Source: a virus. Taken from it: a stretch of DNA of 64,000 bases. The stretch's first letter is position 1; every line of letters begins with the position of its first letter. Where the stretch lies: positions 69,947 through 133,946 of the IMG/VR virus record IMGVR_UViG_3300020183_000015. One strand, given 5' to 3'. Positions 30,861-47,769 of this stretch are shown piece after piece. The notes under the pieces are model-generated. The model had not been told where the DNA came from and ran no database searches. It saw nothing but the letters and a program-made list of their open reading frames with translations. A program made the translations under genes and the position numbers.

Positions 30861-33800
30861 TGGCAAAACAAAAATTTACCTGCCCACCACAAACTGCAAG
30901 CGGACAAGGAACATTTTCTGACAATTTAGTTGGATTACAATTACTTGATGGAGGAGGTTTCACGCAGGCGAATTTTTCATTTACAACATCGATTAGTGAA
31001 AAACAAAATAGGAATTTTGATTTAGGATCGTTTTCAAATCCAATGAACTTGGATTCAATGAAGATTGAAAACCTAATCGAAACACAATCAATACTATCGA
31101 ATAACTTCAAAGTTTATCCAAACTACGACTTAAGTCAAGTAACAAACTTTACTGAATATGGATCGTTAACAAAAAGAATCTCAACATCAGTTACCAAAAT
31201 AATTAACTTCTTTCCTGCTGGTTTAGAAATTCAAAAGATTTCCTCGAAGTTTCTCACACAAACAACCGCCTTTAACTGTGTTTACAATGGACAAGAGAAT
31301 GAAACGACATTCGAAATATATCTTTCATCAATCAGAAACCCATTTGACATTGATTTTAGTCAAAATGCAACAAGAAACATTTTATTAAAAGAAATTGAGG
31401 TATCTCCTTTGAGGGACATGACAGTTAATTTCCAAAAGTATAGTTTGTATATTAATGGTGGTGAATATCCTCTTAATTATATTTACCCAATAACCGATTC
31501 ATCTATAACTTTTACAATTATTGTTGAGGGTAACCCCTTTTCAGGTAATAATATATCTTATGACTATTTGGTAATCAGACCAAACGATTCTCAAGTTAAT
31601 AAAGTTTTCCAAGATAACTTCGATCCCGTTGAAAACTTCTTATTGAATAGAAATGTAAGACCTATCTACACCGCAAACTTTAAAGTTGCAACAATAAATG
31701 ATTCTGGTAATTATACTTACACGAACGAACTAATAACATTTCCACTTTCAGGGGTTTGGAACTTAGATATTTCTTCTCAAAACTTCGAGGTTTATTTAGA
31801 GAAATTAAGTATTTATACGACCAGTTTAGATGAATATAAAACAAACTTATTATCACGATTTTTAACCACAGGTGCTCTAAAAGAATTTGATACACCTGAT
31901 CAAAAGTTTGAAAAAGTTTTACAAATATATGGGAGAAGTTTTGACCAAACTAAAACTTTTATCACAGCATTGTCAAACATGACAAACGTAAATTACGTTG
32001 TTAAAAATGACATACCAAATATATTACTCAAAAATTTGGCAGAAACTTTAGGTTGGAAGATTAACATTTCACCTATTTCAAACGAAGAGTTATTAAGTAG
32101 TGTGTTTTCACCAACAACAAATTTATTTCCCGGACTTTCTAAAGGTCAAACTCCTGAAGAACTCAATTATCAATATTATAGAAATTTGGTAATGAACTCC
32201 GCATACCTATTCAAATCTAAAGGTACAAGAAAATCTATAGAGTGTTTGTTGAGATTGATAGGTGCGCCAGAAATGTTAGTCGAATTCAACGAATATGTTT
32301 ATGTTGCGGATCAAAGAATCAACATGCAAGATTTTCAACAACAATATGTGTTATTGACGGGAGGTACACTCACACAACAAATTCCAGTTCTTCAGTCAAA
32401 CAATGTGTTTTCGATTTTGGGAAATAGTGTAACAGGATTCACAACAACAACCGTAACCGTTCCTGTAACAACTGAAAGACAAGACTACCCTGTTGATTTG
32501 ATTGGTTGTCCACAAATGCCGGAAGTTTCTCAAAATTATTTCTTCCAAATTGGAGGAGGTTGGTTTGAGTCAACACCACAACACAGAATGCCCGAAGAAG
32601 TAAACATTACACAAAGTGTGTTTACAGGTAACAACCCAACATATCAAACCAAACTATTACCTTTTAACTACGGTCAGTTTTATTTAGACAGATACAGATA
32701 TTTCCCATACATGAGTTTGGGTTATAACCTAAGAAAAGTTGCGGACAACAAGAAAAGTTGGGCGGATTTCCAACCTGATCTAAGAAACGTATCTGATGCT
32801 AACATGAATGCTTATTACCGTACTGACGAAGAGTGTTTAGTATTGAATGTCAAAAACGTTGATATTTTTATGAATCCTTCTCAAGGGTTGGTCTACGATG
32901 TATGGCACATGTCAAGACAATATAACTTTCCAATACCAGAACAAGGTTTAAATTACGTAGAACCAAGTCCTTGTAATATACCAAACCCCTATCCCAAAAT
33001 AGGAGGTGTGGATTGGACAGTTATTCAACCAAAACCAAAACAAAAAAGTTTCTTTGAATTTGCCCAAACTTTTTGGCACAACATGATCAATGTAAGAAAC
33101 AGACAATTCATAACAGATGGTAAAACAGGCGGTTACCCAACCTTATCATCAATATATTGGAACTACTTGGAGTCACAACAATTAATAGGAGTTCAGAACG
33201 GTAACTTCAATTACCAAACAATGATCGACTATGTTAATGGATTAGGAACTTATTGGGTAAGATTAATTGAACAAATGATACCCGCCACAACAATTTGGAC
33301 AACTGGTGTGAGATTAGAAAATTCAATTTTTCATAGACAAAAATTTGGATGGAGAAGACAAACAGTTTGTAAAATTTTACCACCGGCTTGTAAACCTTGT
33401 GGTATTACAACACAAGTTTTTGTACACGATTGTCCAGGATTATACATTCAATGTGGACTTTACCCGTGGACATCCAATCCTACAATACCTTCTTTTGGTT
33501 CATTATTATCTTATCTATTGAATCAGTACTACATAGACAATGGAATAAACCCTGCAGATTGTTTGGATTTAACAATACAAAGTCAGTGGTACATAGATAT
33601 AAGAATTAATGGGGTTGTTATAAGTCAAGATCAATTCTTCAGTGGTTCAGGTCCTGTTGGAGTTCCGACAAACTCCGATTGGATTGATGCTTTAGAATTG
33701 GGATTAGGTAATTTACAAAGTTCTGGATATAGTTATGTTATTAATGAAAACGAAGAGGAATTCTTTGTGTTCAACAATAATTGTGTTCCGATAAACGAAG

Positions 33801-33888: not shown

Positions 33889-36072
33889 ATGATTGATTTA
33901 GTTAATTTTGGTCTTACAGGGGATTGTACATCATCAAACATTGGTGAAGTATACATTGAGGTAACAGGAACAAGCCCATCGTGGACATTTAGTGAAGTAA
34001 CCACTACGGGATTTCTACCAACCTCTGCAACCACATATTTTTACTATGTAAATAACCTACCACCAAATTATTATGTTGTTTTAATTCAAGACAGTGCTGG
34101 GGGTACACAATTAATACCTTTCTATATTTCATCAGGAACCTCAGTATCAATGTCAGTTACAGGGACAACCTGTGGTTTAGACAATGGAATTATAAACGGT
34201 TCAACAACAAACGTGTACGGACAAGGAACCTATTGGTTGTACGATTCTATGAATAATCTTGTGACAACAGCAACATCAATCGATACCAATTACATTTTTT
34301 ATGGGTTGAGTGCAGATACATATTATGTAATTGCCGATGATGGGGGTGGATGCACTGGAATGTCAGCAACCGTCTTAGTACAACCATCAACTGAGTTTGA
34401 CTTTGGATATTACGTTGTTGGAGACTCAAGTTGTGATCCTTTAGGACTAGGAAAAATATTTTTAACAGGTCTAACACCATCGAGCGCATATACTATAAAT
34501 TGGATAAGTAATGTCGGGGGTCAAACAGGATCAACAATTACAGGACTTACACAAGGATTTTACTCTGTTGAGGTCACAAATTCTTTTGGTTGTATAAAAG
34601 CAAAACAAATTTTTGTACCTGACGTGCCTTTAGTGGGAATCGCATCAATTCAAGTAACAAACACACCAACATGTTTCCAAGATGACGGAATTGTTGAGGT
34701 AATTGTTACGGGAGGTACTGTACCATATTATTTTAGTGGTAGTACAGGACAAGTTGGTATTACTTTTGGTTCGTCTTTCACTTTTACAAACGTATCTAGC
34801 GGATTATTTTATGCGACAGTTACAGATGCAGGCTTATGTACCTCAATAAATTCTGTTTCAGTACAAACCCCAAATAGCTTTTCAACAGTTCAATTCAATG
34901 TTACAAACTCAACTTGCTCGACCTTGAATGGTGCGGTACAAGTTTTAATTGACAATGGTCTACCACCTCTTAGTACATATACTTTTGTTCTTTCTGGAGA
35001 CAATGGAACTTATAGTACAATTACTTCAGGACCTGCTAATCAACAATTTACGGGTTTAGAATCAGGAAATTATATGATTACCGTAACTGATGTTGCAGGA
35101 TGTACATTTACAGGTTATACTACAGTAAATAACACGAATCTCTTTACATTTACCGCAAGTACAACAGGTACAACCTGTGGATTTGATAATGGGATTTGTC
35201 AGGTACTTACATCATCTGGTGGAACATTACCTTACTCATATAAACTTGTTGGACCTTCCACACATGCTGAAAAGTACTTTAATGAGATTGGATTTTTTAA
35301 TTATTTAAAGTCAGGTAATTACACATTGGAGGTTACAGATAGCGGTACGCCGCAATGTAGTCAAATCAGATCGGTTTATATTTCACCTTCTACAGGTACT
35401 TATTTTGATCTTTATCCAATACAACCTTCAAAAGGTTATGATGGGCAAATAAGTGTACTTATTACAAGTGGAATCCCTCCATTTACATTTAGTTGGAGTG
35501 GAGATGTTTCAGGTCAGACAGGTACAATTTTGACGGGACTAACTAGTGGTGACTATACGTTAGAGTTGACTGATAAACTTGATTGTACATACAAAAAAAC
35601 CATTACTTTAAAAGGGACTAAAAATTTTGTAAATTATTCTGTATTCACAGTTTGTGAACAACAATTTCAACCAAATACAAACTTATCAAGACGAGGTATC
35701 AGACAAATGTATTGGGAAGGATTCTCAGACTTAACAACTGGTAACACCAATTGTATTATAAATTCCGCAGTGTTTACAATACAAGTAAACATAGGTGGTG
35801 AAACGAAAGAAGTTGACTTCTACACCTCAACAGGATTCGACGACTACCCTAATGATTTACTATGGGCCGAAACAATAATCGATACACTAAAATCTTTTGG
35901 TGGAATAGACGATGTGTCCATAGACTTGGTTCAAAATAAATTGAAAATTATTGCGGGTTGTGCCAATTTTCCTAAAAATTGTTCAGAAGAAATTTTAAAT
36001 TTATTGCAAGATGAACTTGTAATTGTCAATCTAAAAATAGATTATGACATTGCTTGTGTAGAATGTGATTGA
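33889..36072 (+). CDS. SprB-like repeat protein, putative fibre/adhesin
   Basis: Repeats of TCGxDNGxI...GGTxPYxF...GLxxGxYxVxVTDxxGC. Confidence 0.75.
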   Translation: MIDLVNFGLTGDCTSSNIGEVYIEVTGTSPSWTFSEVTTTGFLPTSATTYFYYVNNLPPNYYVVLIQDSAGGTQLIPFYISSGTSVSMSVTGTTCGLDNGIINGSTTNVYGQGTYWLYDSMNNLVTTATSIDTNYIFYGLSADTYYVIADDGGGCTGMSATVLVQPSTEFDFGYYVVGDSSCDPLGLGKIFLTGLTPSSAYTINWISNVGGQTGSTITGLTQGFYSVEVTNSFGCIKAKQIFVPDVPLVGIASIQVTNTPTCFQDDGIVEVIVTGGTVPYYFSGSTGQVGITFGSSFTFTNVSSGLFYATVTDAGLCTSINSVSVQTPNSFSTVQFNVTNSTCSTLNGAVQVLIDNGLPPLSTYTFVLSGDNGTYSTITSGPANQQFTGLESGNYMITVTDVAGCTFTGYTTVNNTNLFTFTASTTGTTCGFDNGICQVLTSSGGTLPYSYKLVGPSTHAEKYFNEIGFFNYLKSGNYTLEVTDSGTPQCSQIRSVYISPSTGTYFDLYPIQPSKGYDGQISVLITSGIPPFTFSWSGDVSGQTGTILTGLTSGDYTLELTDKLDCTYKKTITLKGTKNFVNYSVFTVCEQQFQPNTNLSRRGIRQMYWEGFSDLTTGNTNCIINSAVFTIQVNIGGETKEVDFYTSTGFDDYPNDLLWAETIIDTLKSFGGIDDVSIDLVQNKLKIIAGCANFPKNCSEEILNLLQDELVIVNLKIDYDIACVECD

Positions 36073-36292
36073 TATGACACAAGTATTAGTCACACAAATA
36101 ACTGGAATTACTACACCGTTTAGTGGTATAGCTTGTGATGTTTACGGAAATAATTGTGGAGATTTAGGGGTTGCAAATACAATACCGTTTTTATTTAATT
36201 TACCACCTCAATTTGATACCGCACCTGCGGTAAGATTGACACTGATTGACAACACAGGTTGTGAAACTACAGAAATAATTTACTGTACATGA
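36065..36292 (+). CDS. Small Cys-containing beta protein, paralog of 45683..45904
   Basis: Shares QVx(V/I)xxIxG...C-x6-C...PxxFNxP...IDxxGC with the minus-strand ORF. Confidence 0.7.
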   Translation: MIDMTQVLVTQITGITTPFSGIACDVYGNNCGDLGVANTIPFLFNLPPQFDTAPAVRLTLIDNTGCETTEIIYCT

Positions 36293-36365
36293 GACTTTTT
36301 AGAATAGTTACTGTCACACAAGTTTAACTAATTCACTTTGAAAATATTTAAATTAAATTTTGAAC

Positions 36366-37355
36366 ATGGAAAATTTAATTTTTGTGTCGGCACAGCCTGA
36401 TCTTCCTTATTTTCATTGGCAAATAAAGTTATACATACATAACTTTGTAAAACACGGTATTAACCCTAAAAATATTCATGTCATCTTAGGTATTTTACAA
36501 GGTCAAATAGAACCATCTGATGGTGCTATTGAAATTTTAAAACAAGGCGTTAATTTACATTTTTATAAAGATGAAAGAGAAAAAAAACTTTATATCCCAA
36601 GTATAAAACCTTACCTAATACATAAATGGATAGAACAAGATGAATCAAGAGGAAAACAATTTTTCTTACATGACTCTGACATAATTTTAACAAAAGAATC
36701 AAATTTCAAAAATTTATTGAATGACGATATAATTTATCTTTCTGACACCAAAAATTACATTGGGTACGATTACCTAAAAAGTTGTTCTACTAAATACGAA
36801 AAAAACTTTCCTAATTGTAAAACAGAACAATTAATAGACGATATGTGTGAAGTCATTGGTGTTGATAAAGAATTAATTATCAAAAACAAAGAAAATTCAG
36901 GAGGTGCCCAATACATTATAAAAAATACAGATTCTAATTTTTGGAAAAAAGTATACGAAGACTCGACAGAGATGTATCACAAAATGACGATCTTTCAAAA
37001 AAGATACCCACTCAAAAAGGGTAGTGTCCAAACATGGACCGCAGAAATGTGGTCTCTATTATGGAATCTGTGGAAATTAGGACATGAAACAAAAATATCT
37101 GAAGAGTTAGATTTTGTTTGGGGAACAGACAACATTCAAAAATTTTTCGAAAAACCAATATTACACATGGCTGGCGTGACCGAAGATATGAAATATAGAA
37201 AATTTTTTAAAGGGGATTTTATAAATAAAAATCCAATACAATTATTAAAAGAGGACATAAATTACTTTAATTTTATCGAACCTAAAAGTATAACAATAAA
37301 ATACGTCGATAACATGAAGTCTTTTATACAAAAACCAAAAATCGATTATTTATAA
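36366..37355 (+). CDS. GT-A glycosyltransferase resembling peptidyl-Ser/Hyp O-glycosyltransferases (GT96/GT95)
   Basis: YFHWQ, YIPSIKPYLIHKW, DxD motif LHDSDII, GGAQY, WTAEMW and ILH, in the same order as in SGT1/HPAT as recalled. Confidence 0.7.
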   Translation: MENLIFVSAQPDLPYFHWQIKLYIHNFVKHGINPKNIHVILGILQGQIEPSDGAIEILKQGVNLHFYKDEREKKLYIPSIKPYLIHKWIEQDESRGKQFFLHDSDIILTKESNFKNLLNDDIIYLSDTKNYIGYDYLKSCSTKYEKNFPNCKTEQLIDDMCEVIGVDKELIIKNKENSGGAQYIIKNTDSNFWKKVYEDSTEMYHKMTIFQKRYPLKKGSVQTWTAEMWSLLWNLWKLGHETKISEELDFVWGTDNIQKFFEKPILHMAGVTEDMKYRKFFKGDFINKNPIQLLKEDINYFNFIEPKSITIKYVDNMKSFIQKPKIDYL

Positions 37356-37361
37356 AGAAGT

Positions 37362-39428
37362 ATGGAAGATTGTTATATTTTATATTCTTGTGACAGGACT
37401 GAACAACCAGTAATCTCCAATGACGCCCAACTTAGTGGATATGTTGGAAATTTTGTTGCGGTTAGATTATTAGACCCAATAAATGTTCCAACAAAGTGTT
37501 ATTTTGTTTTTTATTTGGGAGGATTAGATTGCCCTCCTACCTCAACCATAGCTTTAGAACCTGATATTATATGTGATTGTTCGAATTTATGTTATTTTGT
37601 TAAATACGGAACTAAATTTCAAACAACAACATACATCGATTCAAAAAACGATTTAATACTAAGAGATTTTACCACAGGTAAAACACAAAATTTTTGTTCA
37701 AAAATATATCCCGTTTTTGAAATTTCAGGTGATACACAAGTAACCGTAAAAAGTGCTTGTATTGGAGACAGTTGTCCTGCAAGTTTAGCAACCGTTAAAA
37801 ACGTAAATGAATGTGACGTACTAACAATATTTCCAATGGGTGTTGATTGTATTGTTATTAATCCAAAATCGCAAGTTAGTTTTGATGGGTCTGCTCAATT
37901 AGCAATAACAGGAGGAACTCCACCTTACACAATAGAATGGGAGATAGGTAGTTTTGCTCCGGCACTAACAAACTTACCGCCAGGAGAATATAACGCAACC
38001 GTATCTGATTATTATGGTGATTTTGTAATTGACACAACATGTGTTCTAACAGCAGAAACAATCTACTATTCAGGAATGTGTTTTGTGTTAGACGGAGGAA
38101 AAGGTCAACCTGATCAATACTTTACCGTAGAATCTTCAGGTGTAGAAAATGGTAAACCAAGTTATGTAATATCAACACCACTTTTATCTTATGGTGTTGT
38201 ATTTTGGGATGAGGCACAAGGAATTTGGGTGTTCTGTTTAAATTATAGTTGTGGTAACAGTACATATTACAACTACTTGGATAATAACTACGGGGACTAT
38301 CCCTCAACTTACGGTACGTTTTATTGGTCGGCAGGGACAAACACAACACATAAAATAATAGATTCTTATTTAGGACCTTGTGAACCCCCTGTAACACCTG
38401 TTTCTTACGGTCCTCTTTGCGCATTTTACCTTTTAAACACAAATGATCCTGAAAACCCTTATACGGAAGTTTTTGTTACACTATATTATAACGGTCAAGT
38501 TAACGGACAAGCCAGTTGGCAGTCTACCGGTACAACATATGACATATATTGGAACACAGGTTCTACACCAAACCAATGGGTTCTTACTGGATATGGCGGC
38601 ACACCATCAAGTTTGGTGGCAAGTAATAATTCAGCAACACCACCTTTATCGAATTGGTTAGTTTACGGTGACCCATCTATTGACACTATAAGCGTTTTTT
38701 CTGGGGTTTGTTCTAACACAACGACTGTTGGATTTACTGTACAAACAAACGACGCACAATGTAATTTAGGTGGAGGTAGTATTATGATAAACGCTTACGG
38801 AGGGACCCCACCTTATCTATATTCAATAGACGGAGGATTAAATTTTTATGGAAGTCCATATTTTCCAAACCTATTGGGTGGAACTTACTTAGTACAAGTT
38901 TCAGACATAAATGGAGTTAGTTCACAATCATCTGTGACCGTCGCAATATTGAATTCAACAGTTTATCAATTAGCCTTTGGATTCAGTTTGGCAACTAACA
39001 GTTTTACAATAGCAACACCACCGTTACCTCCAGGAGTTACAATCTCTTTTCAAGTGGCACATACAAATGTATTTAATTATTCACCAAACACGTTACAAAC
39101 AAGTCCAACACCACCATCATATAATAACATAGCAACCTTGATTGGTATTGGTCCTTTGGCTTTATATCAAACAATAAACAGTTTCCAAAACATTGGTGGT
39201 CCTTGTACTTCGGTATTCACACCACTAATACAAAATCAGTCGAATAGTGCTTATTTTGCCAACCTCACATTGCCGGGGTCACAAACAATAAACGGAACAG
39301 TAACAAATACAATAGTAAACCCACCAACTGGGGATTGTGAAAATGCATCGGGAAGTTACAACATTCAAATAATTAACTTACAAATCAATAATTGTACTTG
39401 TTGTGAAGTCGAATTATTTGGAATTTAA
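37362..39428 (+). CDS. Cys-rich fibre/adhesin-like protein with SprB-like repeats
   Basis: GGTPPYTIEW...LPPGEY and GGTPPYLYSIDGG...GTYLVQVSDING, plus two NGxxxY/W...W modules. Confidence 0.65.
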   Translation: MEDCYILYSCDRTEQPVISNDAQLSGYVGNFVAVRLLDPINVPTKCYFVFYLGGLDCPPTSTIALEPDIICDCSNLCYFVKYGTKFQTTTYIDSKNDLILRDFTTGKTQNFCSKIYPVFEISGDTQVTVKSACIGDSCPASLATVKNVNECDVLTIFPMGVDCIVINPKSQVSFDGSAQLAITGGTPPYTIEWEIGSFAPALTNLPPGEYNATVSDYYGDFVIDTTCVLTAETIYYSGMCFVLDGGKGQPDQYFTVESSGVENGKPSYVISTPLLSYGVVFWDEAQGIWVFCLNYSCGNSTYYNYLDNNYGDYPSTYGTFYWSAGTNTTHKIIDSYLGPCEPPVTPVSYGPLCAFYLLNTNDPENPYTEVFVTLYYNGQVNGQASWQSTGTTYDIYWNTGSTPNQWVLTGYGGTPSSLVASNNSATPPLSNWLVYGDPSIDTISVFSGVCSNTTTVGFTVQTNDAQCNLGGGSIMINAYGGTPPYLYSIDGGLNFYGSPYFPNLLGGTYLVQVSDINGVSSQSSVTVAILNSTVYQLAFGFSLATNSFTIATPPLPPGVTISFQVAHTNVFNYSPNTLQTSPTPPSYNNIATLIGIGPLALYQTINSFQNIGGPCTSVFTPLIQNQSNSAYFANLTLPGSQTINGTVTNTIVNPPTGDCENASGSYNIQIINLQINNCTCCEVELFGI

Positions 39429-39452
39429 TAAAAACAAATATTTATAAAATAA

Positions 39453-42400
39453 ATGGGATATATCATTAAAAATACTTCAGGTCTTGTGAACACAAGAATT
39501 ACCGACACAGGTAGACAAAAACTATCTCAAGGTAATTTTAAAATTTCATATTTCCAAGTTGGGGATAGTGAAGTGTCTTATGATAAATTACCCAACTCAT
39601 ACAATCAAGCAAATAGTTTTGTTTTAGAACCTCAGTTTAACGCACAAAACAGTTCAGGAGCTCCACAATCAAATAAACAATATGTTAAATATCCATATTT
39701 GGTTGATCAAGGTGAAACAAACACCTACGGAATACCTTTTATGGACTCAGCAATAGAATCTGTATACAACAGAGCAGCAATGAGGGGATTTTTTGATGGA
39801 ATTACCACAGGAACAACAATAAATTGGAGGGTTTTAACCGGTGATTACTATGTTGTTACGGCAAACTACGAAGTCCCAATGAATCAATTTGTTGGCGATA
39901 ACAAAATTTTATTGGAGTATTCACCTTGTAACGGTCAAAACACAAGAAAACCAAGTGTTGGTGATTTCATAACCATATTCTACGATGGGAATGGATGTAG
40001 TAATTGTTATTGTGAAAATGTTCCAACCCCAACACCAACAACATCACCAAACTCAACAGGAGTACCAGTTACACCAACCCCAACACCAAGTGCAACTGTC
40101 GGAACTATAAATTGCGCAAGCCCAACCCCGACACCTACACCAACTCATACTCCTTGTCTTAGCCCAACTCCACAACCTGCGTGTCCACCAACACCTCTTC
40201 CTGAGTGTTATATGTCGATGAACAGTTGTTATCTAATTTTGACTTATAGAATTATTGATGTTTGTGATAATTTAATAACTCTTGATAGGAACACACCTGA
40301 CTATTGTGAAATATCTCCTGATTGTTGTGCAAGAGTTATTATTTATCCACCAAATATGACCACTCAATACGATAGTTATACCCCAAGACCACATTGGGCA
40401 GATAACGTTATTGATTTTGAATCTGTTTGTGATCTTGACCAATTCAATGTTAAGATTTGGAATATGAATATTCCTTGGACTGAAAATCCAGCTGGATTAA
40501 TATCAACACAGTATAAAGGATATCAGGACTTTGGATCTATAAATTATATTGGAAGTAAAGAATATTTTGGGTACAATAGTTCTAGTGGACAGACATCAAC
40601 AGATCCTGTTTACTATTTCAATTCTTTTAGTGAAAAAATTATAGTAACACCTGAAGAACAAAAGGCGATTGCAATAATTCACTATACAAATCAAACTATT
40701 GATTTCTTCTACGGTGAAAAATTTGCACTAGAACCATACGACCCAACAAACCCGTTAGACACCATCGGTCAAGCTAGAAACTTCAAACTACACGTTCCAT
40801 GGTTGATGTGGCACAAAAATAGAGAATGTTGTTTTGGTGTAACATTTTGGGTAGATCCTCCTGGATTTGATGGAAAAGACTTGTTTCAAGTACAGTATAT
40901 CAAATCAACAAAAAATTCTGATATGAATGAACCGGGATTGAGATATTACAATCTATGGGACACGTATCCAAATGCAAACGGAATTCCAAATAGAGTCGGT
41001 AAAGTTTTTCCTGACTCACACATAGTGGTTATTGATGATGAAGAATTGGTTGCCGCGATGTCATATAAGTCAAACAGAAACTTTACATTACCTGCACCTC
41101 AACTTTCTTTAATTACACCTAATATATGTGACACAACAACCTCATTGAATGGTGTTTTGTCTAGCCATACCGAAACAATGTACATTACCTATCAATTGGA
41201 AAACGATTATTGTTTTACAAATTGGTTACATAGTAATTATTACTCAAAGATTGTCGGAAACAATAATATATGTACTCCTGATGTTAGTAAAAACGTAGCA
41301 ATTAGATTTGGTCCTGAGTTTCCATGTTTGAATCAACCAGGGTATACACCAACAACAACTACTACAACATTCCCAACCACAACTACTACAACAACAGTTA
41401 ATCCACCATGTTGGGAGAATGGATTCAAATTTACATTTTTATTTGGAAGTAATGTTGTTGAGTTGTTTTTACAAAACACAGGTTCGTATCTAAATGGTCA
41501 ACCAATATTTAGTGCAACTTTAGGGACTCATGCACTGAACGTTTATTGGAATGGATTGGCTTGGATAATAATAGCGGTGGATAGTCCTGAAATTGAAACA
41601 ATTCTTTTTACAACAATTGACCCAATTGGAGGATTTGATACAAATGTGACAGGAGGTGTTTTACAAGTTTCAGGCTATACAAGTTGTGGAAATGATAACA
41701 CAATTTGTGCTACTATTTGTCAAATTGCTGGATCATGTTACAATGACACTTTTGTTCCTATTAATAGTGGAGGCACAACAGTTTATCTTTCTTTTACAAC
41801 AAATTCACAAATATATTATAATCAAATCGCAGGAGATTGGGTGATGGAAATTGCAGGAACTGTGGAAGGAAAATTAATCGGTTTATCGCCCAATGATATA
41901 CCAATAGGATCGTACATAACAAGTACATACGATTCGATTTCAACAACCCCTGGAAGTTGTCCACTTACTTGTAATTGTGTGAACTTTAGTGCTCAAACAA
42001 CCACACAGGTTAATTATTTGGAGTGTAACGGAGTGTTATCTTTTATTACACTCCAAGTCGGAGACCAAATGGATGTTTGTGTTGCAAACAACATATTTAA
42101 TTTGGGTCCGGGATCAGTGGTTGTTAATCATTGTACACTTCCTTGCCCAACACCAATCATGATGTCTAGTATGTCAAACATGTCATTACAAAACACTGTA
42201 CAGAATTTTACTTCGTTAAATCAAAATTTTAACGTCAATCAAGTTACAACTACAACAACAGCATGTCCAGTTTGTAATATTGAAAATGGTTTTTGGGCTA
42301 CAAAATTTAAAGTTTTAGCACAAAAAGTAGTGACAGGAGAAAGACCAGATCCTGCAAAATGGAAAGTCATCGACTTCACAACTAAAATAGAATCTCAATT

Positions 42401-42800
42401 TATAAATGGTTATGTTACCGAAAAATCACTTACAGGAACAACCTTTATAATTACACCCGATAATTATGATTCGGCACCATACTATAAATTGAACAACTAC
42501 ATAAATTTAGTTCCTATTTCAGAAACAGGACCAACATTGAATTTTGGAGATGAGTATTACTTTTACGGGAATATCGAAACCGACATCCAGGCAACAATTT
42601 ATGAAATGAAATATAAAATCAATTTGGGACAAACTGAGTTTTTAATCTCACAAAACCCAAGTTGGTCGACAGCTAAACAGCCTTACATTACTGAAATTGG
42701 ATTGTTTGACGATCAAAAAGACTTGTTAGTAATTTCTAAATTACAGTCACCCACATTAAGACAAGGAATCCAACAATACGTGGTAAAATTAGATTTGTAG
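39453..42800 (+). CDS. Tail collar/fibre-anchoring protein with Pro-Thr stalks
   Basis: N-terminal RITDTGRQKLSQGNFKISYFQVGDSE and C-terminal ITEIGLFDDQKDLLVISKL resemble tail-collar fibre motifs; PT and poly-T inserts lie between them. Confidence 0.6.
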   Translation: MGYIIKNTSGLVNTRITDTGRQKLSQGNFKISYFQVGDSEVSYDKLPNSYNQANSFVLEPQFNAQNSSGAPQSNKQYVKYPYLVDQGETNTYGIPFMDSAIESVYNRAAMRGFFDGITTGTTINWRVLTGDYYVVTANYEVPMNQFVGDNKILLEYSPCNGQNTRKPSVGDFITIFYDGNGCSNCYCENVPTPTPTTSPNSTGVPVTPTPTPSATVGTINCASPTPTPTPTHTPCLSPTPQPACPPTPLPECYMSMNSCYLILTYRIIDVCDNLITLDRNTPDYCEISPDCCARVIIYPPNMTTQYDSYTPRPHWADNVIDFESVCDLDQFNVKIWNMNIPWTENPAGLISTQYKGYQDFGSINYIGSKEYFGYNSSSGQTSTDPVYYFNSFSEKIIVTPEEQKAIAIIHYTNQTIDFFYGEKFALEPYDPTNPLDTIGQARNFKLHVPWLMWHKNRECCFGVTFWVDPPGFDGKDLFQVQYIKSTKNSDMNEPGLRYYNLWDTYPNANGIPNRVGKVFPDSHIVVIDDEELVAAMSYKSNRNFTLPAPQLSLITPNICDTTTSLNGVLSSHTETMYITYQLENDYCFTNWLHSNYYSKIVGNNNICTPDVSKNVAIRFGPEFPCLNQPGYTPTTTTTTFPTTTTTTTVNPPCWENGFKFTFLFGSNVVELFLQNTGSYLNGQPIFSATLGTHALNVYWNGLAWIIIAVDSPEIETILFTTIDPIGGFDTNVTGGVLQVSGYTSCGNDNTICATICQIAGSCYNDTFVPINSGGTTVYLSFTTNSQIYYNQIAGDWVMEIAGTVEGKLIGLSPNDIPIGSYITSTYDSISTTPGSCPLTCNCVNFSAQTTTQVNYLECNGVLSFITLQVGDQMDVCVANNIFNLGPGSVVVNHCTLPCPTPIMMSSMSNMSLQNTVQNFTSLNQNFNVNQVTTTTTACPVCNIENGFWATKFKVLAQKVVTGERPDPAKWKVIDFTTKIESQFINGYVTEKSLTGTTFIITPDNYDSAPYYKLNNYINLVPISETGPTLNFGDEYYFYGNIETDIQATIYEMKYKINLGQTEFLISQNPSWSTAKQPYITEIGLFDDQKDLLVISKLQSPTLRQGIQQYVVKLDL
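40023..40202 (+). repeat. Pro-Thr coding repeat
   Basis: PTPTPTTSP...TPTPTPS...SPTPTPTPTHTP. Confidence 0.9.
41346..41396 (+). repeat. Poly-Thr coding repeat
   Basis: TPTTTTTTFPTTTTTTT. Confidence 0.9.
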
Positions 42801-42852
42801 TCGAAAACCTTCAAATTTCAAAAAATTATCTTATTATCTTAATAAAAAAAAT

Positions 42853-43455
42853 ATGACCAAGAATTTGAAAAACTCACCAAAAGTTTTGGGTTTGGATATA
42901 TCCACCAAAACGATAGGATGGGCCTTGTTTGACATCCGATCTCAAGATCTTTTGGAACTCACACACATATCCCCAAGACCTAAAAATACGGATGATGATA
43001 AACTAAAAGAATTAATTCTTAAGTCTGAAATATTTGCAGAAAAGCTTAAACTATACAAAGATTTAGGTATTGTAAGAGTTGTAATTGAGGAACCACTATT
43101 AAACTCGAATAATATTTATACAATACAAACATTACTTAGATTTAATAGTTTTGTTTTTAAGGAAATCTATAATATTTTGGAAATTGTACCCGAATTTATC
43201 TCAACTTATAACTCAAGAAAGTTTGCCTTCCCCGAATTAGTTCAAGAAAATGAAAAAAAAAAGTTTGTCCTTTTTGGAGGATTACCCAAAGACATTGACA
43301 AAAAAATGATCATTTGGGAAAAGGTTGCTAAAAGAGAACCTCAAATCACTTGGCATTATACAAGAAACAATACTTTGAAAAAGGAAAACTTTGACCAAAC
43401 AGATGCCTATACTTCTGTGTTAGGGTTAATGAGATCAAAAGGAATTTGGAAATAA
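42853..43455 (+). CDS. ruvC: RuvC-like Holliday junction resolvase
   Basis: LGLDISTKTIGW, VVIEE, DQTDAY. Confidence 0.8.
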   Translation: MTKNLKNSPKVLGLDISTKTIGWALFDIRSQDLLELTHISPRPKNTDDDKLKELILKSEIFAEKLKLYKDLGIVRVVIEEPLLNSNNIYTIQTLLRFNSFVFKEIYNILEIVPEFISTYNSRKFAFPELVQENEKKKFVLFGGLPKDIDKKMIIWEKVAKREPQITWHYTRNNTLKKENFDQTDAYTSVLGLMRSKGIWK

Positions 43456-43505
43456 TATCTTCTGAAATAACAATAATTTAAAACATCCTACAAATGAAGA
43501 TATTT

Positions 43506-45683
43506 TTATGCAATCACGTCAAATCCACATATATCAAACTTAATACCACCTAAAGCGTAGGATAATTGGTTTGATGATAATGTTAATGAATTGAAACCTG
43601 ATGGAGTATAAATTGTAAAAATACCGCTTCCACTATGATATGGTAAAGAAGAATTACCAATACAACCTGATAATGGAAACGCCTCAACTGATTGGCCAAC
43701 TATCTGATAACAACAAGCGTCACACTCAGTAACCGTCATCTGAGGTTGTCCATTATTAACACTGAATTGAACGGATTCTGTTGAAACTAAAACTCCTGTT
43801 GCGGTGTCAATTTTAAACGTATAGTCAAAAAGTCTTATTCTTACGTTGTTTACTAAACCATTGAATGTTACTGTATAACTCCAATTACCTAATAGAGTGG
43901 CACCTCCTTGAATTAAATCGGTTACAGTGATTGTTTGACTGTAACACGCTGGAGAAAACGTCTGAGGTCCAGTAAAGGTTATATCGCCAAATCCTGTTCC
44001 AGCCAATGTTATACCGTTAATAACTAAAGACTGACCAATTCTAGGAAGTGGACCACCAATTGGACAACAATCCTCAACACAATTTTGATCAACAAAACTT
44101 ATGACAAGAGCAGTAGAATTACTAATTGGAGAAAACGAAGAACACCAGTAAGAATCACCAGGGGTTGCGGCAACGTCTATAACATTACCATTACAATCAC
44201 CAACCTGAACTTCTTGATTAACAGGACCATTGTTTGTAATTAACCAAGTTGATGTTATACATTGGTTAGGGGTTGGTGTTGGTGTTGGCATAGGTGTTGG
44301 GGTCATAGACGGACAAATTGTAGGTAATTCAATTGTGTTGAATGACGCAAAACTTAGTAAACAATTAATTGCCGTACAATCGTTAGGGTATCCACAAGTC
44401 ACATCAACCCAATCACCGACTGCTCCAATAGGGGTTATTGTGTCAAATGGTAGATATGAACCTATTAAGTTTGTTGTTGTTTCTTCTGCAACCCACCTAA
44501 CGTTAATTGGGTCCCAATAAATTGAATACACATATGTATTATTAAGTGGTAAATTAGGGTAAGTCCAAGTATATGAAGGTCTTCCATTAATTATTGGACC
44601 TGCATTTACTTGTTCAGAACCACATTCAGAATTAACAACTAAACAATTGTAAACTGGTATAGGTGTTTCTTCAGGACAATACAGACAAGCTCCCGAAGCA
44701 GAATCACCAACAACCAAAATAATCTGAATGTTATCGATACCACTTAAGTTTTGAACAAGACCTTCAAAAATAGCACAAGTTTTAGTACCATTTATTACAA
44801 CTTGGTAAACAAATCCTTCAGATAATTGATTGTTATAAGGATCTAAAACAGATTCTGTTGTGTAATAATCAAAACCTGTAAAACAATCTTTGAATTTTTT
44901 ACTATCACCACAAATGATTTTTTCTGACACTCCATTAAAAATTGCACTCCCACTAAAAATACAAGGTCTAATAATTGTTGGTGATTGTGTTGGTGTTGGT
45001 GTAGGTGTTGTCGATGGACTTGGCGTCACTTTAATTCCTGAAATAGTTGCCGAATACCCACCACACGGATTAGTTTGTGTTGGTGTAGGAGTTGGTGTAG
45101 GAGTCGGAGTCGATGTCGGAGATGCCTCGGGTACTGGAACAAAAAAACAATCAAAAATCGCCTCAAAATTAAAATCCTCACATGGATCTGTTGTAATTGG
45201 TGTTGTTTGACAAGCACCTGAGTAAAATAAACTACTGTCCAAATCAGGACATGGCGATGAAGACCCCATTGGACCAAAAAGATCACAAACTCCACCTAAA
45301 GATGAAGATAAACACCACTGTAAATTTGTGAGGTTATAATAAATAAAGTAAGGCCAAGTAGAACCCTCGAAATACACTTCATTATTGAATGTACCTGCGA
45401 CTTCATATGTATCATCGTAAAAATTAGTTCCATCAACACAGTATTCATCCGCACAATTACAAGAAGTAAAATACCTGAAACCACCCAAATAATAAAAGGC
45501 AACTACACCATTTGAATAAAACCCAGTTGTCAACTCACTTGGTGCGGTACATAGCGCACTTGTATAAAGACTTTCCCCAACAGACAAACTATTACCGTAA
45601 ATTGTTATACCAACAGACGCACCACAAGCATCTGTTTTGGTTGCTTGAACTGATGACCATAAACCTAAATTACTACAGGGCAT
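43506..45683 (-). CDS. Cys-rich, Pro-Thr-repeat fibre/decoration-like protein
   Basis: 725 aa, three PT tracts, many Cys, NGRPSY...IYWD...W module. Confidence 0.6.
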   Translation of the reverse strand: MPCSNLGLWSSVQATKTDACGASVGITIYGNSLSVGESLYTSALCTAPSELTTGFYSNGVVAFYYLGGFRYFTSCNCADEYCVDGTNFYDDTYEVAGTFNNEVYFEGSTWPYFIYYNLTNLQWCLSSSLGGVCDLFGPMGSSSPCPDLDSSLFYSGACQTTPITTDPCEDFNFEAIFDCFFVPVPEASPTSTPTPTPTPTPTQTNPCGGYSATISGIKVTPSPSTTPTPTPTQSPTIIRPCIFSGSAIFNGVSEKIICGDSKKFKDCFTGFDYYTTESVLDPYNNQLSEGFVYQVVINGTKTCAIFEGLVQNLSGIDNIQIILVVGDSASGACLYCPEETPIPVYNCLVVNSECGSEQVNAGPIINGRPSYTWTYPNLPLNNTYVYSIYWDPINVRWVAEETTTNLIGSYLPFDTITPIGAVGDWVDVTCGYPNDCTAINCLLSFASFNTIELPTICPSMTPTPMPTPTPTPNQCITSTWLITNNGPVNQEVQVGDCNGNVIDVAATPGDSYWCSSFSPISNSTALVISFVDQNCVEDCCPIGGPLPRIGQSLVINGITLAGTGFGDITFTGPQTFSPACYSQTITVTDLIQGGATLLGNWSYTVTFNGLVNNVRIRLFDYTFKIDTATGVLVSTESVQFSVNNGQPQMTVTECDACCYQIVGQSVEAFPLSGCIGNSSLPYHSGSGIFTIYTPSGFNSLTLSSNQLSYALGGIKFDICGFDVIA
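44984..45137 (-). repeat. Pro-Thr coding repeats (a further tract at about 44270-44305)
   Basis: SPTSTPTPTPTPTPT and TPSPSTTPTPTPTQSP. Confidence 0.85.
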
Positions 45684-45904
45684 TAAAAATGTATTACTTG
45701 ATTTATTACACAGCCCGCATCGTCAATAATCTTAACCACAACACTATTCAAATTATTATATGGAAAAGGTACGTTGAAAACATAAGGTAATTGACCTGCG
45801 TTTATAGTGGAAATATAAATGCAATTTGTAAAAATTAAATTACAAACATAGATGTCGTAATTTGGTGTTCCATTTATTGTAGATATCGTAACTTGATTGG
45901 GCAT
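45683..45904 (-). CDS. Small beta protein, paralog of 36065..36292
   Basis: VCNLIFTNC...PYVFNVP...IIDDAGC; TATTTAT upstream on the minus strand. Confidence 0.7.
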   Translation of the reverse strand: MPNQVTISTINGTPNYDIYVCNLIFTNCIYISTINAGQLPYVFNVPFPYNNLNSVVVKIIDDAGCVINQVIHF

Positions 45905-45951
45905 TAAAAGTACTTTTAGATAAATATAGAATATGAAAAAAACTTGTGAAG

Positions 45952-45980
45952 TTGAGAAATTATTTATTATTTCCTATATT
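45952..45980 (+). promoter_or_regulatory. Possible sigma70-type promoter TTGAGA-N17-TATATT
   Basis: 17-nt spacer, directly before the primase gene. Confidence 0.45.
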
Positions 45981-45982
45981 GT

Positions 45983-46885
45983 ATGTATATGGAAGAAAAT
46001 GATGCTTTAGTTGAGTTGTTAGAGTCGCTTTTGGGGGATCATGGACTCCATTACCCCAACCGAGGCCAAATCTCCTTCAATTGCCCCGTGTGTGATGACG
46101 GAAGAAACAAACACAACCTCGAAGTAAACTACATAGAAAATGTTTTCAAATGTTGGTCTTGTGGTGATAGTGAAAATACTCACGGATCTTTAACCAAACT
46201 TTTTGACAAATATGGAAATAGAAAACAAAAAAAACTTTATTCTGTTTTCAGACCAGAGACAATAGTAAAAAGAGAAAAGAAGAAAAAAACACTAAAATTA
46301 CCCGAAGGATTCACCCTCTTTAAAGACTCAAGCCCCGTTTATCCCGTAAGAAGATCTGCTAAAAATTATTTAGATAATCGGGGAATTTCCGAATATATGA
46401 TCGAAAAATATCAAATTGGATTTTGCGACAAAGGAGACCACGCAGGACGTATAGTTATACCATCATATAATTCTAACGGTGAGTTAAATTATTATATTGC
46501 GAGAAGTTGGAGTCCTATGTCTAAAGCAAAATACAAAAATCCTGAGGCAGAAAAAGACAAAATAATATTTTGGGAAAGTTTAATTGATTGGACAAAAGAC
46601 ATTTATTTAGTAGAAGGTGCGTTTGATGGTTTGTTTTTAGATAACGCAATCCCAATGTTAGGTAAACACATGTCAGAACTTTTATTTGAAACAATCTACA
46701 AAAAGGCTAAGGCTAACGTTATTATTTGTTTGGATGGTGATGCGTGGGAAAACGCTGTAAAACTTTACCATGAATTAAACGGTGGAGACCTATATGATAA
46801 AATTAAAATTTTGAAACTACCAATTGATCAAGATGTTTGTGATCTTAAGGGTAGAATTGATGATTACTATACTATAATAAGATAA
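45983..46885 (+). CDS. dnaG: DNA primase (Zn finger + TOPRIM)
   Basis: CPVC...CWSC, RIVIP, KYKNP, LVEGAFD, LDGDA. Confidence 0.9.
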   Translation: MYMEENDALVELLESLLGDHGLHYPNRGQISFNCPVCDDGRNKHNLEVNYIENVFKCWSCGDSENTHGSLTKLFDKYGNRKQKKLYSVFRPETIVKREKKKKTLKLPEGFTLFKDSSPVYPVRRSAKNYLDNRGISEYMIEKYQIGFCDKGDHAGRIVIPSYNSNGELNYYIARSWSPMSKAKYKNPEAEKDKIIFWESLIDWTKDIYLVEGAFDGLFLDNAIPMLGKHMSELLFETIYKKAKANVIICLDGDAWENAVKLYHELNGGDLYDKIKILKLPIDQDVCDLKGRIDDYYTIIR

Positions 46886-47748
46886 TGGATTTAAAAAAAA
46901 TAGCACAAGAAATACGAGATATCTTGTCTGAAAGACAAAAAGAGTTTCAGATAACTTTTGAAGAAGAAAGTCACAAATATACTATGTTGGACGATAAAGG
47001 AAATTTAAGAAGTGATTTCCCATCAGTATCCAAAGTTATGAAGTTATTTTACGAGGAATTCCCAACAGAACAAGCTGCTTATAGTAAGGCTGGTGGAGAT
47101 CCTGATGAAGCTGAAAGACTTATGGAAGAATGGGCCGAAGCAGGTAGAAAATCAACTAACCTTGGTTCTCGTTGTCACTTCTTTTTGGAAGAACATACAT
47201 TAAAAGAGTTTGGTATTGAAAAAGAAGTTCGTCAACCAATTTTTGAATGTGATGCAGAACAACTTATTAAAAGTGATACAATGATTATCACTGGAAAAAG
47301 ATATATTGATCTAATTAAAGATAGAGGATGTGTCTTGATTGATACGGAAATGGTATTAGGTCATCCTGAACTTGGGTATACTGGTCAACCCGATAAGGTT
47401 TGGTTGGTTGTTGGAACTAACGGTAAGTTGGGTATCTTAATTACTGATTGGAAAACAAACAAACCAAAAAACTTTGCGGTTACCAAATACACTAAAAACA
47501 TGAAAAAACCATTTCAGGATCTACCTGATAATGCTTTAGGTCACTACCAAACTCAATTACCTTTTTATGGTAAATTGTTACTCAAAATGTTAGAAGGAAC
47601 TAAGTATGAAGGTATACCACTTTTGGGTTGTATTGTGGTTTTACTAACCGAAGAGAGGGAATTTCACGAGTACCGAGTTTCAAAGAAAACAATGAATACG
47701 ATACTTGAAATGGACATGAAAGAATATTTGACTAAATCTAAAAAATAA
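46885..47748 (+). CDS. PD-(D/E)XK exonuclease (Cas4/RecB-like)
   Basis: PSVS, GSRCH, E...GQPD...ITDWKT, YQTQLPFY. Confidence 0.8.
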   Translation: MDLKKIAQEIRDILSERQKEFQITFEEESHKYTMLDDKGNLRSDFPSVSKVMKLFYEEFPTEQAAYSKAGGDPDEAERLMEEWAEAGRKSTNLGSRCHFFLEEHTLKEFGIEKEVRQPIFECDAEQLIKSDTMIITGKRYIDLIKDRGCVLIDTEMVLGHPELGYTGQPDKVWLVVGTNGKLGILITDWKTNKPKNFAVTKYTKNMKKPFQDLPDNALGHYQTQLPFYGKLLLKMLEGTKYEGIPLLGCIVVLLTEEREFHEYRVSKKTMNTILEMDMKEYLTKSKK

Positions 47749-47756
47749 ACTATAAT
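47728..47756 (+). promoter_or_regulatory. sigma70-type promoter TTGACT-N17-TATAAT
   Basis: Same hexamers and spacing as the promoter at 9783. Confidence 0.75.
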
Positions 47757-47769
47757 ACAAATAAAAAAA

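Follow-up and report, generated by a model that had tools for sequence, protein, structure and literature searches.

Why does an uncultured giant phage carry the gene of a soluble, Lys-rich enzyme within a run of Cys- and Thr-rich genes, and what would that enzyme modify? The locus lies in a 64-kb window (the whole stretch of 64,000 nucleotides that was analysed, part of a 134-kb viral record), and a sequence-only reading had taken the gene at 36366-37355 for a plant-like glycosyltransferase that decorates the fibre stalks of its own phage. Because relatives of the enzyme in many unrelated phages come and go with Thr runs on particle proteins, we think that the phage enzyme probably coats the virus particle with sugar.

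The Enzyme Gene and Its Neighbours

The features of the locus are as follows.

33889..36072, plus strand: protein C, 727 aa, 5' of the enzyme gene; SprB repeat (PF13573, E 1.6e-7)
36065..36292, plus strand: 75-aa ORF inside the 290-bp "gap" 5' of the enzyme gene
36366..37355, plus strand: enzyme gene; 329-aa soluble GT-A glycosyltransferase of phrog_4417
36672-36680, plus strand: DxD motif of the enzyme, D103-S-D105 (H267, elsewhere in the enzyme, is invariant)
37362..39428, plus strand: protein D, 688 aa, 6 nt 3' of the enzyme gene; SprB repeat (PF13573, E 1e-8)
39453..42800, plus strand: protein E, 1115 aa, proposed acceptor, two genes 3' of the enzyme
40017..40157, plus strand: (Pro-Thr)n linker of E, aa 189-235, retained with or without the enzyme
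41337..41408, plus strand: main poly-Thr tract of E, aa 629-652, PGYTPTTTTTTFPTTTTTTTVNPP, proposed O-glycosylation tag
42246..42260, plus strand: second Thr run of E, aa 932-936, TTTTT, directly 5' of a conserved CPxC
43506..45683, minus strand: protein F, 725 aa, with three (PT)n tracts
44973-45131 and 44265-44312, minus strand: PT tracts of F, aa 185-237 and aa 458-473
45683..45904, minus strand: 73-aa ORF, paralog of the 75-aa ORF, directly upstream of F

The motifs listed in the sequence-only reading are all present in the 329-aa ORF (YFHWQ at residue 15, YIPSIKP at 76, HDSD at 102, WTAEMW at 224, and ILH at 265), and the enzyme is, as described there, Lys-rich (12.5%) and DxD-bearing (H102-D103-S104-D105). 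A TTG at 36360, two codons further 5', is an alternative start that would give a protein of 331 aa. The enzyme contains 4.0% Thr and 0.9% Cys, and the genes that flank it are Cys/Thr-rich, again as the earlier reading had it, with 10.6-14.0% Thr (C, 14.0% Thr and 2.6% Cys; D, 10.6% and 3.6%; E, 11.3% and 3.0%; F, 11.2% and 5.1%). The scan around the enzyme gene found no terminator and fewer promoter-like sites than in shuffled sequence, and no tRNA genes were found in the 64-kb window. The 75-aa ORF has paralogs at 45683-45904 and beyond the window. Some relatives have ORFs inserted between C and the enzyme gene; one of the nine inserted ORFs carries collagen repeats and eight gave no Pfam match, and the idea that they are glycosyltransferases was rejected, since none of the nine was so matched.

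The genes around the enzyme lie downstream of a baseplate wedge gene, C and D carry SprB repeats, and C has a single weak match to phrog_26672, "virion structural protein" (E 1.7e-6); from these points we infer that they are fibre-like. The structural-gene region of the earlier reading is thereby retained, and its "fibre genes" are better worded as probable fibre genes. No structural-protein family was matched by D, E, or F in Pfam or PHROGs, and tblastn of proteins B, D, E, and F against cultured phages gave no match. For protein E, PDB sequence and profile searches were empty, the ESM Atlas had no usable match, and the only PHROGs family reached by its homologs (19 of 44) was phrog_15511, of unassigned function. 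An AF2 model of E built with 44 homologs had a mean pLDDT of 46.8 and a pTM of 0.35, and the low confidence over its PT and poly-T segments is uninformative because most of E is modelled with low confidence. Protein E is presumed to be present in the virion.

Fold and Family of the Enzyme

The enzyme matches phrog_4417, a phage protein family without assigned function, over its full length (E 1.1e-71, 242 bits, residues 6-319 on positions 3-290 of the 293-position profile). The family comprises 855 cluster representatives at E ≤0.001 and at least 594 IMG/VR matches. Among 49 homologs, Y76, D105, Y131, G180, F250, H267, G270, and K282 are invariant, and D103, W18, Q19, W224, M228, and W229 are at least 90% conserved. 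The predicted model is a single Rossmann-like alpha/beta/alpha domain that can be superposed on solved GT-A enzymes, with the H102-D103-S104-D105 motif directly after strand 98-101. GT-A fold and DxD motif agree with the earlier assignment of the gene as a glycosyltransferase.

The closest solved folds are GT8-type, including glycogenin (1zcu and 3u2t), LgtC (1g9r), GlyE (5gvv), and Skp1 GlaT (6mw8), although sequence identity to GT8 enzymes is 6-12%, the Foldseek TM only 0.4-0.46, and the phage enzyme has additional helical material at residues 129-173 and 190-237. The enzyme matched no Pfam family, PF01501/GT8 included (E ≤0.1), and PF01501 is absent from the 20 Pfam families matched by its 49 relatives (E ≤1). 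Membership of GT8 by sequence was therefore rejected, the resemblance being confined to the fold. Pfam, NCBIfam, and PDB sequence searches with the enzyme returned nothing usable. The best solved fold matches have mixed acceptors (proteins, protein glycans, LOS, and O-antigen), so that the fold cannot name the acceptor.

The kinship to plant SGT1/HPAT enzymes claimed in the sequence-only reading turned out to be faint. Pfam PF23452 (HPAT) is the top, though weak, family among the relatives of the phage enzyme, being matched by 2 of 49 (best E 1.3e-4, model cut-off 23.9 bits) and by 1 of 109 representatives, and the enzyme itself had no PF23452 match by hmmscan. PF23452 also had no match when the whole record was searched in six frames (E ≤10), a result that says little because the control genomes gave none either. 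Of the 30 named matches of the enzyme in the ESM Atlas, 19 fell in clusters with 10% of members PF23452-bearing, and the motif order that the earlier reading had given for plant enzymes is kept across the 49 homologs of the phage family. We take GT95 and GT96 to be the CAZy numbers of the plant hydroxyproline O-arabinosyltransferase and peptidyl-serine galactosyltransferase, respectively. The acceptor of plant HPAT/SGT1 is Hyp or Ser, whereas the likely acceptor of the phage enzyme is Thr. Domains fused to the enzyme in the 109 representatives were Glyco_transf_7C (4), PF11397 (3; also the family of a second glycosyltransferase of this phage, see below), GT2 (3), GT6 (2), and GT25 (2), with single fusions to O-FucT, GDP-mannose dehydratase, epimerase, and sulfotransferase.

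Poly-Thr Runs and Not Pro-Thr Tracts Follow the Enzyme

The extensin/mucin-like tracts noticed earlier were found again, (PT)n in both E and F and pure poly-Thr in E. The poly-T runs of E are at aa 634-639, 642-648, and 932-936, and TRF detected an (ACA)-type array at 41346-41396 within the main tract. Protein E is the sole ORF of the 134-kb record with runs of five or more T (T ≥5); F has none. The main tract of E shares its block pattern (T6-8, then x-P) with the tails of cultured phages. When residues were shuffled, none of 20000 versions of E reached three T ≥5 runs or three (PT)3+ tracts, and none of 20000 versions of F reached three (PT)3+ tracts. Runs of T ≥5 also occur in homologs of F (28/62) and D (32/93).

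According to the earlier reading, every fibre protein nearby has its (Pro-Thr)n/SPTP stalks O-glycosylated by the enzyme in the style of plant extensins. PT tracts are indeed abundant beside the enzyme gene: they are present in 68/73 homologs of E and 57/62 homologs of F, and none were found in the other genes of the homologous loci (GT, RuvC-like, primase-like, and others). The weak PF23452 signal in a few relatives would fit such a role, and an enzyme that uses Thr runs could accept Thr inside PT repeats. Against it, this genome has six ORFs with PT tracts, four of them at a distance of 56-86 kb from the enzyme gene, and the two kinds of tract behave differently where the enzyme is absent. 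Among distinct E homologs of the jumbo lineage, a T ≥5 run was present in 72/80 from enzyme-bearing loci versus 0/7 from enzyme-less loci (Fisher p 1.1e-6, with rows that are not independent), whereas the PT linker was kept in 79/80 and 7/7, respectively. In the alignment the poly-T site is exactly deleted or replaced in the enzyme-less homologs and the PT linker is unaltered. As far as these homologs tell, the co-varying feature is the pure poly-Thr run and not the TPTPTP/SPTP tracts, and the PT tracts of E, present in all seven enzyme-less loci, do not depend on the enzyme.

Of the 8 enzyme-bearing E homologs (of 80) without a T ≥5 run, 6 come from loci with T runs in another ORF and 2 from incomplete loci. 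One enzyme-less jumbo locus (L190) is a counter-case, with a T5 run in its D homolog. No enzyme homolog was found anywhere in two complete relatives of 257 kb and 304 kb, in a search that recovered the homolog in 5/5 positive controls. Sites of six consecutive ACN codons numbered 0 and 1 in the two complete enzyme-less genomes versus 5-7 in three enzyme-bearing ones, a noisy count (14 reverse-control matches in one genome, G012) that carries little weight.

The same genome encodes a PF11397 enzyme (record positions 41280-42611, E 1.8e-69), about 64 kb upstream and outside the window. We take PF11397 to be the GT60 family of Skp1-hydroxyproline and mucin-Thr GlcNAc-transferases. It belongs to another family and another locus than the phrog_4417 enzyme, and its presence is independent of that enzyme and of the T runs: it was found in all 5 lineage genomes tested, including two complete ones without the phrog_4417 enzyme. 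This GT60-like enzyme is a rival candidate for modifying the PT tracts. Together with the use of T blocks, not PT repeats, by the cultured phages described below, these results make it unlikely that the PT stalks are the substrate of the phrog_4417 enzyme.

Co-Variation in Other Phage Lineages

Cultured phages that bear the enzyme exist. The homolog lies just 3' of the annotated major tail or tail tube gene in phiFL1A, 1706, phiCTP1, RQ1, TPWB06, and Bacchae, adjoining it in four of the six and separated from it by one small ORF in RQ1 and TPWB06; in 4995_1 it comes after the major capsid gene. The remaining neighbours of the Bacchae homolog are replication-type genes. T runs were present on ORFs near the homolog in 11/11 cultured phages opened, in every case as T blocks and not PT repeats, and in 8/11 these ORFs are annotated as head, head-protease, portal, or tail-tube. 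Poly-T tails are carried by the pair of capsid and tail-tube proteins in phiFL1-like, 1706-like, iLp84, and R3.3 phages. The tracts of these distant relatives are C-terminal tails of capsid or tail-tube proteins, whereas the tract here is internal to E, a protein whose AF2 model is poor.

Locus sets were anchored on a neighbouring gene and the tail was left out of the query. In phiFL1-like phages with the enzyme, both tail-tube and capsid proteins had poly-T tails in 12/12 loci; in the 15 loci without it, tails were present on 0/15 tail-tube and 0/12 capsid proteins. Poly-T with versus without the enzyme was 69/69 versus 0/5 in the 4995_1-like capsid set, 2/2 versus 0/25 in the 1706-like set, and 36/37 versus 0/1 in the R3.3-like capsid set. 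In the VPE25-like set, four enzyme-bearing loci had T-rich tails (two of them with T ≥5) versus 0/1 enzyme-less locus. Fisher values overstate the support, since rows within a lineage are kin, and contrasts were therefore counted on trees. The phiFL1-like tree gave three supported contrasts, all concordant, and the jumbo lineage three, of which two to three were concordant and none opposite; neither tree alone reaches p<0.05. Adding one further contrast, tree-untested, per lineage for three or four more lineages brings the tally to at least seven concordant and none opposite (sign test, p 0.016 for 7/7). For six lineages, these comparisons support the view that the enzyme family behaves as if tied to Thr-rich tags of virion proteins. 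Of the earlier proposal of virion protein O-glycosylation, the link to virion proteins thus gains from the enzyme/poly-Thr coupling, with poly-Thr runs in place of TPTPTP as the likely substrate.

A Proposed Role for the Enzyme

Direct observations are the fold and catalytic-type motifs of the enzyme and its joint gain and loss with the tag. In the light of these, the phrog_4417 enzyme is likely to be a GT8-like retaining GT-A glycosyltransferase that puts the first sugar on poly-Thr tracts of particle proteins. The enzyme would be cytoplasmic and metal-dependent, would take a nucleotide sugar of the host as donor, and would add the first sugar to the threonine hydroxyls of the tracts during particle assembly. 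The tract in this phage would be the T6-FP-T7 block and the T5 block of protein E, and in small Gram-positive phages the C-terminal tails of the major capsid and tail-tube proteins. Exposed, disordered tags of the virion would be covered by the glycan, which may serve in shielding, stability, or adhesion. We infer a protein threonine as the acceptor, and likewise the choice of sugar, the place of E in the virion, and the benefit to the phage.

A different account would have the poly-Thr tracts modified or used by something else, with the enzyme merely extending the glycan, or would have tail and enzyme travel together in a single mobile cassette, with the enzyme not acting on the tail. A complete 37.7-kb record without the enzyme (L319/G015) that retains the poly-T tail on its tail-tube protein, the exception in our sets, agrees with this, as does the fact that several GT8-type structural matches (GlyE, Skp1 GlaT, UGGT, and LARGE1) are glycan extenders and not initiators; moreover, the tail-coding and enzyme DNA adjoin in small phages, so that a single recombination can move both. 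However, the capsid gene of phiFL1-like phages lies 2 kb upstream with five genes between, and its tail still tracks the enzyme (12/12 versus 0/12), the tract in this window is within E at a distance of 4 kb from the enzyme gene, and the annotation tables of the small phages examined list no second glycosyltransferase near the homolog. We regard this account as highly unlikely.

To an action on non-protein acceptors, either phage DNA bases or host envelope glycans (LPS, teichoic acid, or capsule), such as are modified by known phage glucosyltransferases and serotype-converting enzymes, we give hardly any weight: solved folds of similar Z include LgtC (LOS) and WbbM (O-antigen), part of the homologs are in temperate phages, and phage glycosyltransferases are mostly discussed as DNA- or host-modifying in passages of PMC12619734 and PMC10955285, but such acceptors leave unexplained both the joint gain and loss with poly-T tags in six lineages and the placement in head-tail operons right after the tagged gene, and the family spans virulent and temperate Gram-positive phages and jumbo phages, with very different envelopes.

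Beyond the glycosylation of poly-Thr tracts by the enzyme itself, we are evenly divided on a wider reading, in which a dedicated GT8-like phrog_4417 enzyme and a portable poly-Thr tag, able to mark any particle protein for O-glycosylation in the cytoplasm, would form a widespread system, with at least two parallel protein-glycosylation codes in this jumbo phage. The tag would be used on the capsid and tail tube by siphophages of Enterococcus, Lactobacillus, Lactococcus, Staphylococcus, and Clostridium and on fibre-like proteins by freshwater-type jumbo phages. The two codes here would be T blocks, served by the phrog_4417 enzyme, and (PT)n, served by the GT60-like enzyme of an upstream glyco-island.

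If the tract is the substrate of the enzyme, glycosylation of virions is not confined to actinophages and would be common among phages that infect enterococci, staphylococci, and lactic acid bacteria and among abundant environmental jumbo phages. Such a result would bear on phage therapy (antibody recognition and clearance), dairy phage biology, and virion stability, and the large unnamed family phrog_4417 would gain a function. A short, genetically encodable T6-8 tag and a single soluble enzyme would also be at hand for site-directed O-glycosylation in bacteria.

Comparison with Known Systems

Our literature search, which covered sources other than subscription journals and supplementary files, found no paper on the pairing of enzyme and poly-Thr, and none, within the same scope, on DUF7164, PF23452, phrog_4417, or PF23741. 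As far as these searches show, the system of phrog_4417 enzyme and poly-Thr tag is unpublished.

PBCV-1 A64R (PDB 2p6w), a Chlorella virus glycosyltransferase for the major capsid protein, scores below the GT8 enzymes against the phage enzyme and, unlike it, comes from a eukaryotic virus. The glycans of PBCV-1 are N-linked at non-canonical sites and not on poly-Thr tags.

Virion glycosylation of mycobacteriophages was reportedly the subject of Freeman et al. in 2023 (Cell Host Microbe 31:1216). Glycosylation of mycobacteriophage virions by phage-encoded glycosyltransferases is described in passages of PMC12619734 and PMC13313380, and, to the extent that these passages show, capsid and tail-tube are the same protein pair as in the poly-T-tailed phages. 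The system proposed here would have as its acceptor tag a recognisable T6-8 block, which in this window is internal to the 1115-aa protein E, unlike the capsid and tube tails. Its enzyme belongs to the unnamed phrog_4417 family. The hosts of the mycobacteriophages are actinobacteria, whereas the phrog_4417 enzyme occurs in phages of Bacillota, in a phage of Chryseobacterium, and in jumbo phages that are uncultured.

Genome and Gene Neighbourhood

The whole record measures 133,946 bp, with a CheckV completeness of 46%, and complete relatives of the window phage measure 257-318 kb. The source of the window is a contractile-tailed jumbo phage. The features used here are as follows (window positions unless stated).

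Just upstream of the window, tail sheath gene (phrog_23, E 6.8e-55)
Just upstream of the window, baseplate hub gene
9-17 kb, SSB, UvsX-like, DnaB-like and ribonucleotide reductase genes
18349-20190, baseplate wedge gene
33889-36072 (+), ORF C
36065-36292 (+), small ORF of 75 aa in the apparent gap 5' of the enzyme gene
36366-37355 (+), the enzyme
37362-39428 (+), ORF D
39453-42800 (+), ORF E, 1115 aa
42853-43455 (+), RuvC-like Holliday-junction resolvase gene between E and F (phrog_159, E 3.8e-6)
43506-45683 (-), ORF F
45683-45904 (-), 73-aa paralog of the small ORF; its end at 45904 closes the interval marked in the sequence-only reading
Record 38971-39267, outside the window, 98-aa paralog of the small ORF

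The Thr/Cys-rich ORFs C, D, E and F surround the enzyme gene, and the large ORFs spanning 20 kb-45 kb have no relatives among cultured phages. Pro-Thr repeat (PT) tracts occur in both E and F, whereas runs of at least five Thr (T>=5) occur only in E; neither the T>=5 runs nor the PT tracts of E were reproduced in 20000 shuffles.

Several other observations concern this neighbourhood. The 75-, 73- and 98-aa paralogs share 27-35% identity, each abuts a large PT-tract or fibre-like gene, and a family search with them gave no match; possible roles are those of a fibre chaperone or an assembly factor. The RuvC-like gene is far better conserved (66-92% identity over 65 relatives) than the adjoining genes. 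The slot between the C and enzyme homologs, which holds just the 75-aa ORF in the window, is variable in six relatives (L005, L009, L024, L046, L061 and L077), with 1-3 added ORFs of 110-1296 aa, one with collagen triple-helix repeats and the others without a Pfam match. A 302-aa protein (29952-30860, +) is 76-95% identical across relatives, and the short motif SPSSSPTNKP(S) is retained in 46/54 of its homologs.

Enzyme Family

On re-checking the sequence, ORF 36366-37355 agreed exactly with its earlier description. The enzyme has no match in Pfam, NCBIfam or PDB sequences; PHROGs places it in phrog_4417 (function not annotated) with E 1.1e-71. The family comprises 1144 proteins at E<=0.001 by word-indexed search and 855 cluster representatives by exhaustive search. 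Homologs are present in 77 cultured-phage records, at less than 60% identity in all, and the hosts are mostly Bacillota. D103xD105 and H267 are conserved in the family, a sequence pattern like that of a GT8 metal site. Longer relatives are fused to Glyco_transf_7C, PF11397, GT2, GT6, GT25 or O-FucT, and also to GDP-mannose dehydratase, epimerase, sulfotransferase or methyltransferases. Such fusions to glycan-building domains are consistent with a role for the enzyme in initiating a glycan or contributing to its construction. Among the relatives we also observed P0156 (658 aa), fused to a radical SAM/SPASM domain, and P0194 (779 aa), fused to a class-I methyltransferase domain.

The sequence-only reading had described the enzyme as plant SGT1/HPAT-like. 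PF23452 (HPAT) is the commonest Pfam family among the relatives, yet it was matched in 2/49 (best E 1.3e-4) and 1/109 of them, with a similarly faint signal in the ESM Atlas. Since this signal is faint and limited to few relatives, and the enzyme itself does not match PF23452, we keep it out of that family; "HPAT/SGT1-like" would describe a distant possibility, not membership.

Poly-Thr Tags in Cultured and Small Phages

In cultured phages the homolog lies within the head-tail operon, often right behind the tail-tube gene. All 11 homolog-bearing records examined have blocks of 5-12 Thr on ORFs near the homolog, typically T6-8 with x-P spacers (VAP, KP, QP). The Thr-block ORFs are annotated as head, head-protease, portal or tail-tube in 8/11 records, the blocks being mostly a C-terminal tail. 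The ORF immediately 5' of the homolog in Lactobacillus phage iLp84 (L234 6504-6881; 125 aa, annotated "major tail protein") and that in Staphylococcus phage RQ1 (L231 11623-11934; 103 aa) consist mostly of five or six T7 blocks.

IMG/VR was queried with the structural protein adjoining the homolog, the tail being left out of the query so that relatives without the enzyme were able to appear.

C-terminal poly-Thr tails on structural proteins in loci with and without an enzyme homolog
Set and protein; with enzyme; without enzyme
phiFL1-like, tail tube; 12/12; 0/15
phiFL1-like, capsid; 12/12; 0/12
4995_1-like, capsid; 69/69; 0/5
1706-like, tail tube; 2/2; 0/25
R3.3-like, capsid; 36/37; 0/1
VPE25-like, tail tube; 4 T-rich tails, of which 2 carry T>=5; 0/1

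The tube-chaperone junction was covered in all 27 phiFL1-like tail-tube loci, where the enzyme-bearing loci form three identity classes with enzyme-less loci interspersed. A tube ORF was recognisable in 27/31 of the 1706-like loci, and downstream coverage reached at least 1.2 kb in 22/25 of those without the enzyme. The sole enzyme-bearing miss in the R3.3-like set is a frameshifted record (L354), in which the capsid tail is readable in another frame only. This record has many split ORFs, with the enzyme gene in two pieces (194 aa and 104 aa); it represents a prophage in decay or else an assembly of low quality. One exception is an R3.3-like prophage (L319; record G015, 37.7 kb, rated complete) that lacks an enzyme homolog and keeps a poly-Thr tail on its tail-tube protein, which ends in TTTTTTVAPTTTTTSHA; its capsid protein has another C-terminal domain (372 aa) in place of the tail.

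Poly-Thr and PT Tracts in the Jumbo Lineage

To 80 enzyme-anchored loci, syntenic with the window over 26-50 kb, we added 80 loci anchored on the RuvC-like gene, which brought in relatives without the enzyme. Among 95 distinct E homologs the enzyme slot was covered in 87, 80 with the enzyme and 7 without. A T>=5 run was found in E in 72/80 with the enzyme versus 0/7 without, and anywhere in the locus in 78/80 versus 1/7; a PT tract was present in E in 79/80 versus 7/7. In the alignment, the poly-Thr site follows a conserved ...RFGxEFxCLxQPGY, and the homologs without the enzyme, and these alone, have it deleted or replaced; their N-terminal PT linker is unaltered. No enzyme homolog was found in any of the ten enzyme-less records, two complete genomes among them, and in the positive control for this search the homolog was recovered in 5/5. 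The exceptions are the 8 enzyme-bearing E homologs that lack T>=5 and one enzyme-less locus with T5 in its D homolog.

Judging from these counts, what goes with the enzyme is the poly-Thr block, not the PT stalk. The earlier proposal, that it glycosylates the Thr/Ser-Pro stalks of neighbouring fibre genes, is unlikely for the PT stalks, with poly-Thr blocks as the more probable acceptor: PT tracts persist without the enzyme (7/7) and, of the six PT-tract ORFs among the 111 of the record, four are distant from the enzyme gene. The observation itself is confirmed and its interpretation partly supported, by wholly computational means.

E has an extra domain of ~280 aa (aa about 653-931, window 41409-42245) between its two poly-Thr tracts. 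It is shared with the nearest relative (L005) and missing from most homologs, which are about 830 aa long; L084 and L038 also have inserted sequence at this site. Since the two tracts flank a domain that most homologs lack, they behave as insertion points or inter-domain linkers.

Because the loci are related, contrasts were counted on trees, built without the tag. The phiFL1-like set gave three well-supported contrasts, all concordant (3/3), and the jumbo lineage three, with a mean of 2.6 concordant and 0 opposite; on either tree singly, p<0.05 is out of reach. The overall tally is at least 7 concordant contrasts and 0 opposite (sign test p 0.016 for 7 of 7), a conservative but informal count that adds one contrast apiece from three or four other lineages, counted without trees.

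A Second Glycosylation Island

Record 35851-47239 (L113 851-12239), outside and upstream of the window, second glycosylation island

The island holds a GT9 domain, a GT25 domain, a TylF methyltransferase fused to HtrL_YibB, a GT60-like PF11397 enzyme (E 1.8e-69) and a 663-aa collagen-repeat protein. The PF11397 enzyme is present in 5/5 lineage genomes, whether the window's enzyme is present or absent; it is thus a candidate for acting on the PT tracts. PT-tract ORFs adjoin the island at record positions 36826-38967, 47267-47941 and 47935-49899. A very large ORF (record 23617-31788) is built from numerous repeats that share 71-80% identity with the collagen-repeat protein (39283-41274).

Proposed Mechanism and Closest Known System

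The enzyme has no predicted N-terminal helix, and its model begins with a beta-strand. In the proposed mechanism it would be soluble and cytoplasmic and, with a host UDP-sugar as donor, would O-glycosylate freshly synthesised particle proteins at their Thr blocks. The acceptor in this window would be aa 634-648 and 932-936 of E.

We found no paper on the phrog_4417 family or on phage poly-Thr tails in a search of mostly open-access literature. The closest known system is mycobacteriophage virion glycosylation, which two citing papers place at the C-termini of capsid and tail-tube subunits (PMC12619734, PMC13313380). What this study adds is the discrimination between PT and poly-Thr tracts within the window phage's lineage, together with a second candidate enzyme (PF11397). 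The logic is like that of the mycobacteriophage system as those papers describe it, but the present case differs in host range, in its recognisable tag and probably in enzyme family.
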